DNA of 63,750 nt, filler included, from Reclinomonas americana ATCC 50394 (lineage: Eukaryota), in the NCBI GenBank assembly GCA_048213135.1. It is 4 parts of 3 records of this genome, joined end to end, with 100 filler letters (N's around TTAATTAATTAA, not from the genome) between each part and the next. Parts side by side here need not be neighbours in the genome. Positions count along the whole stretch, not along the records: positions 1 to 29,072 come from PS015173.1; positions 29,173 to 52,515 come from PS015173.1; 2 more parts are not named here. The stretch is one strand, 5' to 3'. Both the position numbers and the translations under genes were made by a program. This document shows positions 18,401 to 52,345 of this stretch, piece after piece (the first letter of the stretch is position 1; each line of letters starts with the position of its first letter). The notes below the pieces were generated by a model. That model saw nothing but the letters and a program-made list of their open reading frames with translations, had not been told where the DNA came from and did not search any database.

Positions 18401-21400
18401 CACGCAGCGGTTGAGTGCCAACCACGTATGCATGCATCTTACCACTCGTAAGAGTCGGCGAGTTCAGTTGCGTCAGCGTAGACGGACCGGCGGCACTGAA
18501 TCCCGAGTAGCACAACATATACGACTGCGTAGTGGAGCCGACATCCACAGGGAGACCAGAGCCGCCTACCGTGATGATCATGCGCTGATTGGGACCGCCG
18601 GTCTGCGGCGATGAGCTGTACACGTAGCTATCCATGATGACGTAGCGTGGACCCGTCGAGGTAAACACATTGCTGGTGTCCGTGCAGGTGGCTGACACGT
18701 TCACATGATGTAGCATGAGCAGGGGAGCAGCAGCAGGTGAGAAGAGTCAAACAGAAGCACGAAACAGCGGGTGAATACGATGGTGTCGGTGGTGCGAAGG
18801 CCCGTTCCGGTGCTGCTCACAAAGGAACAAGCGTAAGATTGTTTTCACTAGACACGACAGCGGTGGTGAATTGTACGCAACAGAGTTAGCACAGCGCCAA
18901 CGTCGAAGGCGGGGATTCGACGTGGGTGGAAATCCGTCAGCACGGCGCTCGCTGCGCGACGCATGCGTGAGAGGAGAATCCACTTTTCATATGTGTGGTC
19001 CAAACTCACTAACGCACTCACCCACGACAGACAGCGGTGGATAACTGAGGTGAAGGTAATCCGTAGCGAGGCCGTCGAGCTGCAGGCACACATGATAGGA
19101 GCCAGCGGACAGCACGCCGTCGATGCCAAGGGACACTGTGAGTTCCGTGCGCAGCGGATTCGTGGACGACGGTCCATACGCTCGAATGTTGACACCAGTG
19201 CAGGATACCGAGTTGGTGGTGAACCACACAACGTCAGTTGGATCGAGGTATTGTCCCTGTGAGTTGCGCATGTGCATGTACGGAAATGCGGATGTGAAGC
19301 TGAGCGCCAGGTGCGATCACACACAGTCACCACCACGCACCGTGACGAGGACCGAGGCTGTGAAATCGGCAGCCGTAATGCTCGTCGGCTGTACACCGGA
19401 GATTGCAGACACTCGCAGCTTTCTTGAACTCACGCGGCTGCATGGCCGCATGACATCATGTAAGTGGCACACACACACACGCATACACATAGGGACGACA
19501 TGGGCGTAACTGGATGGCGCTGCCACCAAAACTCGAGCACACCAAGTACTCTTGCGGTTGGATCGACGACAGCTGCAAGTAGTGCTCCGTCCAGCCACTC
19601 TCGGTCACTGCATTTTACATCACATCGCCAGCAAACTGTCAACAGCCACACACAGCCACGTGCACGATGACGAGGGCAGCGTACCGAAGATCGGAGAACT
19701 GGACACATTGTTAAGCACGGTGACATGGGTGGATGACTGGCATGTCGACGGACACGTGTCGGATGTCGTCAAACACACGGGATCCGAGGCCAGCAAGCCG
19801 ACACCTGCAATCATACCAGGGCAATCAGCAACGGCGGCGGTCGCGGACAGTCAACACATGGCGTACCAATGACGGTGAGCACATCAGCCGAGGACGATGT
19901 ATTGCCGCGCGCAGAGATCGGGCGGAACGATCCCACTACTGCCGGAGTGGGTACAGAGGCAAACACGCGCACGCAAAAAAGTCAGAAGACGATGGAGCCC
20001 ACACGGCGTTGCTCTGTGACAGACGAACCATCTTCAATAGCCACTGTTTGAGCACATGCAATCGAAAGCACCAGTGAGATGATGGGGCTGGCAGACGAGT
20101 GACAGCATGGAAAATGGTAACTGACGCACCGGGAGAGGCTGCAGTGGTGAACCAGAGAATGTCACCCCGTCGCGACGACACAGTGTCGACCGCACGGAAG
20201 TAATAGGTCTGTTGCGGTGTTAGCGACAGCAAAACAGCCGCGACAGCCGTGTCGGACGAGCTGGCAGTAGAGGCTGGCAGTGCGGACACTTGCGTCGGAG
20301 GCGACACCGTGTTGTCGAATGCACTGATGGACTGTGCAAGCTCGAAGATGTTGGCCGTCGCCGCGAGACCACCGGCGTTGATAATGCCATTGAGTACAGC
20401 GCTCGTCGAAGTGATGCTGCTGGCGGCCACCGTGCGCACAGATGCACCTACAGCAAGCAACAGTGAGCATGGTGGACAGTCATTTTCTGCAGCTGTGGTG
20501 GTGTACACAGTTACCGAGGGTGGAGAACGAGTTGAGCGACGACGTGTGGCTGCCAGTGACCGATCGGAAGTAGTACTGGGTGGACGACGACAGACCGCCG
20601 AGTGTGACCGACACAGTGGTCGTTGTGGACCTCGTTGTAATCAAGTGGGATGAGGACAGGCTGGATGCCAGCAGCGCCACTTGTGGACGGCTGTGGCTGC
20701 CAGATTCAACAGAGCTCGACGTGACAGACGTAGCGGCAACGGGAGACGCCGGCAGTGTCACTCGCCGAATGGTGTGATTGCTCAAGTCTGCGAGCAATGT
20801 CTTTCATGAGTGAGATCACGAAACACGGAGCAATGGAAGGCGGCTCACCGCCAATCAGCAGCGATTGACTGGCACCACAGAACGCCACTCCCGACTGAGA
20901 TTCATGCACGCACACAAACAGACAGGTGATGAGCAACCTTGCAAAAGAGAGAGACAGACGAGTGCGAGACGAACTGGTTGTGAAAATCGCGCGACACTGC
21001 CGAGACCGTCGGTGCTTCCCGCGGAGCCAGAACTGCCTGCCACCAAAGACACGGCACCGGCGGCGTCGATCAAGCGCACGGTGTTGCCAAACTGCGCATC
21101 ATAGAGACGCAGGTGCGTGTGTGTCAGGTGGTGAAATCTCCTCACAAGCCGTCAATCGCATCGAACCTCGGTGACATAGACTCCACCAGAGAGCACGTCC
21201 ACGGCGACCGCAAGCGGCCGAACGAACCGTGCATACTGCCCGTCGGCATTGGCATACCCGGACGAACCGAGCTGGCCAGCGAGCGTGCTGACGGCCAGCG
21301 TCTGCAGATCGATCTTTTGCACCACCTGCGAGTTGTTGCCGGCAACATACAAGCAACGGCGTACAGAGTCGACGGCCACTGCTGTCGGCGAGCTGAAGCT

Positions 21401-51400: not shown

Positions 51401-52345
51401 ACCAGCGACAGTGCTCACCACGCCGGTGCGTGTCACCATGCGAATGAGATGGTTTCTGTGCAACACGTCAGGGGAGAGAGTTGGGTCTTGGGAGCATGGG
51501 CGACGCTTGTTCGCAACTGTGTTGCAACGTAGTAATTTCCGCTGGCGTCCACAGTTCCGCGCTGCACGCAATAGTGTGTGAGAGAGTCACACGACAGCGA
51601 TGAAAGCGAGCATAACACGAGCGCACGTTTGGGTTGGTGAAGCGAGCAGTCGAGCCGACACCATCGACCCAGCCAGACGCATTGGCAGTGCCCGCCAGCA
51701 ACGACACCGCTGGCAGCATGTTGAACAAGGCTGCTATATTGGTCGCGCCACCCGGATTGAGTGTTCCGCTCAACAACGCCGATGCGCTGTCGACTTGCGA
51801 TGATGCCCCCGTTGTCACCGTGACAGCTGGAAGGCGCGATTGTGAATCCAACAGCACAAGCGCATACACTTTCGCACGTGGCTCACTCACCGAGTGTGGT
51901 AAATTTACGAGACGAGAACTTGTTGGTGGTATCGGCAGAGGAAACAGGCACTGCAATACCCGCCAAAGAGAAAAGTGAGAAGAAACGAGCTGAATTCTTT
52001 TCGCAGACACGCAACACAATCCATCACCGTCTGCATCAGCGTGGGCGTCTGCAGGCGCCACCCGCAGCGACAAGACATCCTCGGCTACCACGACGGTGCC
52101 GCGAGTGGCGCGCACACGCACATCCAGCGTCGCGTGCGACACTGGCCGGGAGAGCCACAATTGCTTGCGATTGGCGATCCGCACAGAAGCAGCGTCCAGT
52201 CCGCCAGTCACCGACCACGTGAAGTCGGTGGAGTCGCCTGCAGGCTCGTGGGTGCTGTCGACATGCAGCGTGCCCAACGGCACAGACGGGCTCCACTTGC
52301 CGTCCTGGTAACTCAGTGGTTCGAAGCGAACGGTGGCCACGGTGG
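13970..52345 (-). CDS. Giant extracellular-type repeat protein: cadherin-like N-terminal exon, 15 x (FN3-like domain with inserted six-bladed NHL propeller), 4 intact FN3-like domains, IPT-like/Cys-rich region and C-terminal L-type lectin; >150 introns, 5' end lost in a gap
   Basis: About 90 NHL blades (ARFxxPxG(I/V)AVD..LYVADxxNxxIRK(I/V)..V(S/T)TLAG..G..DG). Recurrent FN3 halves TTxxASS(I/V)TxxSAxLxGTxNAxG..FE and SPSTVSGxSxTS(I/V)S..LxPxTTYY(Y/F)RA..GS(V/I)xSFxT. The splice junctions I checked keep frame. Acceptor at 52346-47; stop TGA at 13970-72. Confidence 0.85.
25672..26016. repeat. Intronic (CA)n/(TG)n microsatellite with a small internal gap
   Basis: Direct reading; it ends just upstream of the acceptor of the exon starting AGNHAVRK. 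Confidence 0.97.
29173..30078 (+). other. Misoriented contig carrying exons of modules 11-12 of the giant gene
   Basis: Bounded by N gaps on both sides. When flipped it continues ..ALLSQP| (30170) into IAVDATNG.. and ..VAGKQGV into AYADNSSALMASF (29072). Confidence 0.88.
47627..47985. repeat. Polypurine (sense polypyrimidine) low-complexity tract in an intron of the giant gene
   Basis: Direct reading; similar tracts at 50865-50990 and 52350-52515. Confidence 0.9.

Follow-up and report, generated by a model that had tools for sequence, protein, structure and literature searches.

Six-bladed NHL propellers nested within split FN3-like domains in a 15-module array of Reclinomonas americana, with counterparts in bacteria

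We analyzed a 63,750-nucleotide stretch (filler included) of the Reclinomonas americana ATCC 50394 assembly GCA_048213135.1, hereafter the window. An HMM search of its six-frame ORFs located an FN3-NHL array between 51821 and 20143 of the minus strand, in which 15 N-terminal halves of an FN3-like domain (N-halves) strictly alternate with 15 C-terminal halves (C-halves), plus four unsplit FN3 copies. About 330 residues of NHL propeller separate the paired halves, and the repeat unit is a ~433-residue module present 15 times. That the propeller is nested inside the FN3-like domain is supported by the complementary coverage of the halves, the unsplit copies, the ends of the array, the links between modules and a confident AlphaFold2 model made for a homologue from bacteria. 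The insertion point lies after the third strand, in the C-C' connection, of a sandwich that is bacterial in type and akin to PhoD_N / Pur_ac_phosph_N. Given the complementary halves and the existence of bacterial modules of the same design, the insertion reading holds, yet the architecture is not unique. We consider it probable that this nested module, a bacterial-type sandwich with an inserted propeller, sits on a multivalent secreted or surface fibre of bacterial ancestry.

The original prediction, made from the sequence alone, had claimed 15 NHL propellers, each within an FN3-like domain, and the alternation of halves around the propellers bears this out; every N-half position it gave falls within 25 nt of the recomputed start. 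Its size of ~8000 aa was of the right order: the ab initio chain counts 7,841 codons, with unreliable ends, and about 6,850 residues between the start of N-half 1 and the terminal FN3 domain; the encoded protein is put at roughly 7,000 residues. The assembly is a draft here, with 16 N runs and one inverted contig; assembly gaps interrupt modules 8, 11, 12 and 13, and the other eleven are gap-free. The features are listed below. N-half starts are the upper coordinates of the modules (29596, plus strand, for module 12), and bit scores refer to a bacterial module HMM built from nine bacterial modules (431 positions, six blades in the model).

49941-51821, minus: module 1, N-half 51675-51821, NHL propeller, C-half 49941-50078; 265.6 bits, end to end
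48078-49868, minus: module 2, N-half 49698-49868, propeller, C-half 48078-48224; 271.5 bits
45616-47625, minus: module 3, N-half 47431-47625, propeller, C-half 45616-45762; 323.2 bits
43518-45461, minus: module 4, N-half 45261-45461, propeller, C-half 43518-43658; 301.4 bits
41611-43446, minus: module 5, N-half 43279-43446, propeller, C-half 41611-41763; 346.9 bits
39689-41533, minus: module 6, N-half 41354-41533, propeller, C-half 39689-39829; 356.1 bits
37785-39611, minus: module 7, N-half 39435-39611, propeller, C-half 37785-37937; 349.7 bits
35434-37701, minus: module 8, N-half 37495-37701, propeller, C-half 35434-35571; 359.5 bits
33548-35351, minus: module 9, N-half 35193-35351, propeller, C-half 33548-33685; 347.7 bits
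31596-33471, minus: module 10, N-half 33265-33471, propeller, C-half 31596-31745; 249.6 bits
30099-31518, minus: beginning of module 11, with N-half 31315-31518 and the greater part of the propeller, the rest being in the inverted contig; 270.0 bits once that contig is re-oriented
29173-30078, plus: inverted contig between N runs, which completes propeller 11 and also carries C-half 29340-29471, N-half 29596-29772 and the opening blades of module 12
27677-29072, minus: module 12, remaining propeller and C-half 27677-27796; 237.5 bits
26729-27652, minus: three complete unsplit FN3-like domains within ORF P0003; FN3-like HMM positions 1-104 at 111, 48 and 65 bits
24504-26707, minus: module 13, N-half about 26558-26707, propeller, C-half 24504-24650; 238.1 bits
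22584-24415, minus: module 14, N-half 24233-24415, propeller, C-half 22584-22691; 279.9 bits
20549-22464, minus: module 15, N-half 22294-22464, propeller, C-half 20549-20725; 239.9 bits
20143-20442, minus: terminal complete FN3-like domain after module 15; FN3-like HMM positions 4-103, 58.2 bits
13973-20142, minus: possible 3' continuation, a candidate part of the gene, in which the codon-usage signal continues on the same strand

All 15 spliced modules match the bacterial module HMM end to end (from position 15 at most to position 415 at least of 431; 237-360 bits). The propeller consists of six four-stranded blades in a closed ring, as in six-bladed NHL propellers, and of the 49 ORFs scanned, 13 contained the NHL repeat family PF01436 at or above the 20-bit cutoff (maximum 55.3 bits). 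Simple motif scans gave 17 NHL cores on the minus strand vs none on the plus strand, and nine vs none for TTY[YF][YF]. The modules share 34-68% of their amino acids (median 41%), and their nucleotide identity is 62% in exons and 54% in introns, vs 46% in a shuffled control.

The region reads as one long minus-strand series of exons of a eukaryotic gene. GT-AG introns, whose positions are conserved, divide each module into nine exons (227, 47, 111, 52, 182, 319, 120, 46 and 195 nt in module 6); the propeller of module 9 has one intron fewer and hence a 519-nt exon. In total, 128 unique GT-AG introns were found (median 70 nt), and both the N-half/propeller and the propeller/C-half junctions are exon-internal. 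The N run 36612-36980 is intronic in the module 8 model, and the propeller of module 13 contains a 408-nt intron with a microsatellite and the N run 25837-25856. A 449-nt intron with a low-complexity tract precedes module 3. Non-canonical GA donor sites, considered at one stage, were dropped, the aligner placing GT donors (GTTGCG, 23 times) there. We found neither a signal peptide nor a membrane anchor nor a start codon. The 5' end meets the N run 52516-52615, and a sigma-70 promoter/terminator scan near that end, inapplicable to a eukaryote, returned nothing.

To follow the FN3-like sequence, we used an HMM of the complete domain built from bacterial proteins only (951 domain sequences, 104 positions). 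It gave 33 matches in the six-frame ORFs (i-E<0.05): 14 of N-half type (HMM positions about 1-60), 15 of C-half type (about 50-103) and four complete. One C-half and one N-half, both inside 29173-30078, are on the plus strand, and all the others are on the minus strand. The 15th N-half, at about 26707, is seen in ORF P0003 and scores 9.7 bits within the spliced module. Together, an N-half and a C-half cover one bacterial-type FN3 profile once. In Pfam, seven C-half ORFs match only the C-terminal part of Pur_ac_phosph_N (from positions 40-58 to 93 of 93). The unsplit copies of P0003 score above the Pfam cutoffs, given in brackets, with PhoD_N (60.4 bits [30]), Pur_ac_phosph_N (45.8 bits [30]) and fn3 (32.5 bits [25]), and the isolated halves stay under the cutoff at 17.9-26.5 bits, which is expected, as each is half a domain.

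A structural model was obtained for a bacterial module (L001:3812-5098), using an alignment of nine natural complete bacterial modules and AlphaFold2. The model had a mean pLDDT of 93.4 and a pTM of 0.83, with all five models at 91.3 or above, and showed a six-bladed propeller with a pLDDT of 85-95 in each of the flanking halves; an earlier fold from only three sequences had left the halves at 45-69. Three strands precede the propeller (6-13, 20-27 and 33-40) and four follow it (376-383, 389-395, 403-412 and 415-425), while the first and last propeller strands (49-55 and 368-373) flank the insertion point. From the strand assignment, pLDDT and pTM of this homologue, rather than of the window product, we infer that the halves would pack into one sandwich. 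The one-module fold suggested with the original prediction has been answered for the bacterial homologue, with its three plus four strands around the propeller. A wide VIA-align structure search listed only propeller-containing chains and is silent on the sandwich fold; a PDB sequence search with P0003 gave no match at E<=0.01.

The nested module is present, intronless, in proteins of Planctomycetota and Verrucomicrobiota. Proteins P0148 and P0409 have three modules each and P0438 has four; P0493, P0494 and P0495 also carry it, as do loci L001, L005 and L043. P0409 corresponds to locus L001, from a Singulisphaera sp. MAG, and L043 is from an Isosphaeraceae MAG, while P0438, P0493, P0494, P0495 and L005 come from a Verrucomicrobiota MAG, in which the source name is 'cadherin-like beta sandwich domain-containing protein'. 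These bacterial proteins are uncharacterised. They share with R. americana the order of N-half, six NHL blades and C-half, the identical insertion point and complete FN3 copies between modules. They differ in having one to five modules and no introns, against 15 modules with introns, and some intersperse their modules with cadherin-like (PF12733) spacers. The bacterial style of the domains, pointed out in the original prediction, is supported. The insertion architecture, which that prediction did not know from teneurins or other described eukaryotic NHL proteins, does have precedents, as these bacterial proteins and loci carry the nested module and the split-domain principle is published for RTX adhesins (PMC12077191). 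Among the titles and abstracts returned by literature searches, neither an NHL-in-FN3 insertion nor a paper on the bacterial nested-module proteins was found.

For seven of the 15 modules, the best BLASTP match is a split-module protein, colinear over 460-487 residues at 36-44% identity. However, the propellers taken by themselves are 45-53% identical to unsplit bacterial NHL proteins, which is equal or higher, so that no particular lineage can be named as the donor. The usual NHL-FN3 surface proteins of bacteria (P0059, P0062) combine the same two families with the same FN3 style (TTYYYR etc.), but the propeller comes first and intact FN3 domains follow, with no nesting. FN3 halves occurred in none of the 120 proteins of a 'shorter' homologue search with one P0148 module, and a metagenome contig scan found a complete split module at none of 76 loci and one lone C-half (L148). 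Two junction HMMs were also tried: that from the N-half exon alignment (A1) was unspecific, matching 117 proteins, and P0058, matched by that from the C-half exon alignment (A2), actually contains tandem complete domains.

The periodicity could also be read as beads on a string with no insertion, in which propellers alternate with a contiguous ~95-residue linker made of a C-half and the following N-half, a circularly permuted or novel sandwich, so that the 'split' would be a mere choice of where counting starts. Indeed, a period by itself does not give the phase of an array, and C-half and following N-half adjoin in the chain. Several observations speak against this. The array begins with an N-half at its 5' end and finishes with a C-half at its 3' end, so no half is orphaned, and ORF P0003 (479 aa, 26438-27874), which also contains C-half 12 and N-half 13, reads without interruption as C-half, three complete domains, N-half and first blade. 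Likewise, bacterial P0148 and P0409 start with an N-half, and their modules end with a C-half followed by complete domains. In nine of the 15 modules, only 1-4 residues separate the end of the C-half alignment from the next N-half. Such spacing is that of tandem FN3 domains, each with its two termini at opposite poles. As a link would have to lead from where strand G ends to where strand A begins, at opposite FN3 poles, a contiguous sandwich of C-half plus N-half is infeasible. Finally, a lone bacterial module, comprising N-half, propeller and C-half, was modelled with high confidence in both halves. We give the contiguous-linker explanation almost no credence.

Another rival reading concerns the locus itself, which might comprise several shorter genes or a decaying, unexpressed pseudogene array instead of one gene for a giant protein. 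The gapped draft with its inverted contig leaves room for this, and the ab initio chain is no proof of one gene, because it joins any positive-scoring segment. Yet splicing leaves all 15 modules open and free of stops, and GT-AG sites and intron positions are preserved among copies that share only 34-68% of their residues; modules still open despite such old divergence were counted as maintained. The introns between modules are about 55-110 nt, too short to leave space for promoters or UTRs, and in 13 of the 15 modules a phase-1 intron follows the C-half exon. It is from these short in-phase introns only that we infer a single transcript, and we regard several genes or a pseudogene array as unlikely. 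Still less probable is an inflation of the module count by assembly error, through collapsed or duplicated repeats, or bacterial contamination in a eukaryotic scaffold. Besides the gaps and the inversion, a 234-nt ORF stretch that flanks a gap at 15.5-16.3 kb in two copies speaks for such error. But eleven modules lie in gap-free sequence; the modules differ by 32-66% of their residues and therefore are not collapsed or duplicated reads, and spliceosomal-type introns in every module exclude bacterial contamination.

[quoted passage not shown] In AhLap, FrhA and MpIBP, as in the nested module, a whole domain with adjacent termini interrupts an Ig-like sandwich within a rod of tandem sandwiches and is thereby held out to the side of the fibre (PMC12077191). 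The R. americana module matches the layout of these units, with an interrupted sandwich, adjacent propeller termini and a tandem chain. The inserts of RTX adhesins are carbohydrate-binding modules, peptide-binding domains, RTX rolls or vWFA domains, usually one to three and near the tip, in bacterial hosts; here they are NHL propellers, 15 in number, in a eukaryote with introns. RTX adhesins proper also have C-terminal RTX nonapeptide repeats with a type I secretion signal and, at the N-terminus, a retention module. No Pfam match to these was found among 109 ORFs scanned, which is weak evidence, because the gene ends lie beyond reliable prediction. In teneurins, the entire FN-plug precedes the NHL domain and plugs a YD shell. 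Teneurins and bacterial teneurin-like proteins, considered alongside TcB/YenB toxin subunits, have the FN-plug and then NHL, whereas here the FN3-like domain is split around NHL; the structural likeness to teneurins is confined to the propeller and part of the sandwich, and YD/Rhs families had no Pfam match in the 109 ORFs.

The product would most likely serve as an extracellular fibre, bacterial in ancestry, that binds multivalently. Tandem sandwiches, joined head to tail through 1-4 residues, would form a rod from which each sandwich would hold its own propeller out sideways, with the chain ends of the propeller side by side where it joins the sandwich and the opposite face free for putative binding. 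The stalk with sideways propellers of the original prediction would be the natural reading of the nested module. The resulting fibre might be secreted or lie at the surface and would carry 15 divergent putative binding heads (median 41% identity), working like the units of split domain and ligand-binding domain in bacterial fibrillar adhesins. That the propellers are instead scaffolded enzymes, six-bladed like lactonases, PAL or strictosidine synthase, seems improbable to us. The module would have originated in bacteria, where it is intronless, with introns gained later and the nine-exon unit multiplied by tandem duplication. More tentatively, and as a possibility that we would not yet call probable, this could be the first eukaryotic split-domain fibrillar adhesin, a Planctomycetota/Verrucomicrobiota-type module captured by a protist, which gained introns and multiplied into a ~70 nm rod with 15 binding propellers that captures prey or bacteria or builds a surface coat.

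Split-domain display, so far described for Gram-negative RTX adhesins, would here use another sandwich (FN3-like) and another cargo (the NHL propeller), extending the design to Planctomycetota, Verrucomicrobiota and one eukaryote. The array would be a clear example of a bacterial-type multidomain module turned into an intron-bearing unit and amplified 15 times, useful for studies of how giant repeat proteins grow, and its 15 divergent propellers on one rod would offer natural NHL binding scaffolds for ligand tests. For annotation, half-domains beside a propeller should be taken as a warning of one nested domain, not of degenerate fragments.

In the possible 3' continuation (13973-20142), the Pfam scan found no family other than two L-type lectin fragments, at 14859-15227 and 13973-14347, both sub-threshold. 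The lectin at the tip of the fibre in the original prediction comes down to these two matches, 5-6 kb downstream and past an assembly gap, and is a candidate at most. The N run 15846-15893 in this region has a duplicated stretch on its flanks.

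The window, a draft scaffold, contains 16 N runs; G+C content is ~56% in the region of interest, and ORFs are short in every frame. Repeated coding similarity is nearly confined to the minus strand at 20-52 kb, the sole plus-strand exception being a patch at 29.2-29.9 kb between two N runs. In Pfam searches, 13 of the 49 minus-strand ORFs contained NHL repeats at or above the cutoff, and seven short ORFs matched the FN3-like family Pur_ac_phosph_N over its C-terminal part alone (from positions 40-58 to 93, of 93). An HMM of the complete FN3 domain (104 positions), derived exclusively from bacterial sequences (951 domains of 120 proteins), was run against the six-frame ORFs of the window at i-E<0.05. 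It gave 33 strictly alternating matches: 14 N-halves (about profile positions 1-60, preceding a propeller), 15 C-halves (about 50-103, following it) and 4 complete copies. The fifteenth N-half, at about 26707, was a weaker match (9.7 bits). All 15 N-half positions of the original prediction, the inverted contig included, were reproduced within 25 nt. One ORF carries both split and unsplit domains:

26438-27874, minus strand: P0003, an uninterrupted 479-aa ORF, scoring above cutoff for PhoD_N, Pur_ac_phosph_N and fn3

By eye, P0003 runs from a blade end through a C-half, three complete FN3-like domains and an N-half to a blade start. It serves as an internal control, showing how an unsplit domain looks within the giant protein itself, and the comparison shows that the N-half is the first ~47 residues of that domain and the C-half the remainder.

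Using a purpose-written, splice-aware protein-to-DNA aligner, with a bacterial propeller (P0062) between FN3 consensus flanks as guide, we obtained from every one of the 15 units a module that is open and readable. A typical module has nine exons (about 227, 47, 111, 52, 182, 319, 120, 46 and 195 nt) separated by GT-AG introns of 55-90 nt (median of the 128 unique introns, 70 nt); module 6 totals 1299 nt, or 433 codons. The transition from N-half to first blade falls within an exon, as does the one from last blade to C-half. An intron always parts a C-half from the following N-half. It has phase 1 in 13 of the 15 modules; in 10 of 15 the C-half exon lies between phase-1 introns on either side. 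In the region 47430-48070, the 449-nt intron separating modules 2 and 3 contains a Ser/Leu/Pro-rich low-complexity tract. The presence of introns rules out bacterial contamination as the source of the locus.

Module pairs share 34-68% amino-acid identity (median 41%), and in the 21 pairs of seven regular modules nucleotide identity was 62% in exons and 54% in introns, against 46% for shuffled introns. The modules are old copies; despite this divergence, none of the 15 contains a stop. A chain built ab initio from codon usage and splice-site matrices ran stop-free from 52919 to 14012 (202 exons, 7,841 codons). Since the chain extends on any positive score, and both its ends are crowded with tiny, implausible exons, it demonstrates no more than the possibility of a single reading. 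That the locus is something other than one expressed gene seems improbable.

A profile of the exon alignment over the N-half and first blade was searched against 1.84 billion representatives (E<=0.001) and gave 18,853 matches. Among the 150 matches listed, multi-propeller proteins predominate, and the FN3 HMM detected split halves in one, P0148, with complete domains in between:

P0148, residues 44-109/424-468: N-half/C-half pair
P0148, residues 569-616/917-961: N-half/C-half pair
P0148, residues 1159-1225/1523-1564: N-half/C-half pair

With P0148 as query, 98 further proteins included P0409, which has three modules along with five complete domains, and P0438, which has four modules; P0492 has the arrangement in part. 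The P0438 cluster consists of Verrucomicrobiota MAG proteins named at source 'cadherin-like beta sandwich domain-containing protein'. Species-representative genomes added split modules in 3 of the 78 loci examined:

L001, Singulisphaera sp. MAG: module 1 translation identical to P0409 residues 40-456
L005, Verrucomicrobia subdivision 3 MAG: split modules
L043, Isosphaeraceae MAG: split modules

In the Verrucomicrobiota relatives (P0438, the bacterial proteins P0493-P0495, and L005), the domains alternating with the split modules are cadherin-like beta-sandwiches (PF12733) rather than complete FN3 copies. P0494 has a hydrophobic N-terminal stretch, signal-peptide-like by eye. None of the 76 loci from a metagenome scan had a complete split module, nor did any of 120 proteins from a 'shorter' homologue search have FN3 halves. 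The nested architecture is thus rare, yet it recurs in two bacterial phyla. By contrast, more ordinary bacterial relatives (P0059 and P0062) have the propeller first, then intact FN3 domains. All 15 window modules match an HMM of nine bacterial modules from end to end (237-360 bits), and for 7 of the 15 the top BLASTP match is a split-module protein (colinear over 460-487 residues, 36-44% identity).

Natural bacterial modules, standing in for spliced window modules, were folded. From three sequences, the prediction was confident for the propeller but not for the halves (pLDDT 45-69). With nine (target L001:3812-5098), mean pLDDT was at least 91.3 in all five models (best 93.4, pTM 0.83), with 85-95 in N-half and C-half alike. 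In the best model, strands 6-13, 20-27 and 33-40 and a connector (41-50, pLDDT 71) precede the propeller (24 strands, 49-373), and strand regions 376-383, 389-395, 403-412 and 415-425 follow it. Three strands before and four after give the seven of an FN3 sandwich, which the model predicts to be split after strand C.

Five lines of evidence favour the original prediction's reading of a propeller inserted into an FN3-like domain over mere array periodicity. N-half and C-half together span the profile a single time, and no strand is absent or duplicated. The array opens with an N-half and closes with a C-half, and the three complete copies are flanked by a C-half before and an N-half after. Only 1-4 residues part the end of the C-half alignment from the next N-half in 9 of 15 modules, just as between ordinary FN3 domains in tandem; as the termini of the FN3 fold lie at opposite poles, folding of a C-half back onto the following N-half is excluded. 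The first strand of the propeller is the outer one of a blade whose other three strands come last in the propeller (VSTLAG ... IRRITL), so the two propeller ends are neighbours, a requirement for an inserted domain. Finally, the same nesting occurs in bacteria (P0148, P0409, P0438, L001, L005 and L043).

The Aeromonas hydrophila adhesin paper gives Graham et al. 2024 as reference for the general split-domain rule. According to the adhesin paper, Ig-like 'split domains' hold ligand-binding domains off the adhesin axis, the inserted domains have adjacent termini, and their binding site is the point farthest from the junction (PMC12077191). The window module obeys the principle of RTX adhesin split domains as set out there, but with another sandwich, another cargo and 15 repeats instead of one to three. 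The 109 ORFs scanned gave no match to RTX, retention or secretion-signal families, the ends of the giant gene not being delimited; the window protein is not an RTX adhesin, and its host is a eukaryote. Teneurins have the FN-plug entirely upstream of the NHL domain, and in YenB an NHL propeller is inserted in a YD shell (PMC5851990); these are related themes but different architectures. Both the bacterial homologues and the published split-domain principle weaken the earlier claim of an unknown architecture. Full-text literature searches gave no account of an NHL propeller nested within an FN3 domain.

The analysis shows the architecture and its conservation. About 19 sandwiches would form a secreted or surface rod, displaying 15 divergent propellers laterally and serving as a multivalent binding fibre. 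Such a putative binding or adhesion role is somewhat favoured, and enzyme arrays seem improbable. The module probably came from bacteria, then gained introns and was multiplied as a nine-exon unit by tandem duplication, because the blade and FN3 styles, bacterial-like as originally proposed, and the nested module itself all occur in bacteria, and all named matches are bacterial, in databases biased towards prokaryotes. Propeller-only identity to unsplit NHL proteins (45-53%) equals or exceeds that to split-module proteins, so the donor lineage cannot be named.

Further features lie to either side of the array:

51900-52514, minus strand: open frame preceding the first N-half, possible beta-rich domain (P0124)
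14859-15227, minus strand: L-type (legume-like) lectin fragment (28.7 bits, cutoff 78.3; E 1.4e-6)
13973-14347, minus strand: L-type (legume-like) lectin fragment (16.3 bits, cutoff 26.3; E 0.007)
12306-12971, minus strand: weak anoctamin-like match (18.9 bits, under the cutoff of 28)
11469-12098, plus strand: Dcp1-like decapping family ORF (27.4 bits, over the cutoff of 22.5)

Neither start codon nor signal peptide was identified in the upstream frame, which extends into the N run 52516-52615. The predicted lectin 'tip' rests on the two sub-threshold fragments, 5-6 kb downstream past an assembly gap with duplicated flanks; they may be a C-terminal domain of the giant gene or a separate gene. 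Codon-usage signal persists on the same strand between array and fragments, and 16000-20140 (minus) holds several 55-90-codon exons that matched no Pfam family; some stretches there look IPT/TIG-like by eye. Identical 78-codon ORF stretches at 15500-15733 and 16058-16291 (minus) flank the N run 15846-15893 and are probably an assembly duplication, which affects any gene model that would connect the lectin exons with the giant gene. Long (GT)n/(CA)n microsatellites adjoin assembly gaps (25670-26070; 53840-54450). The Dcp1-like ORF is a eukaryotic neighbour gene on the strand opposite to the giant gene.
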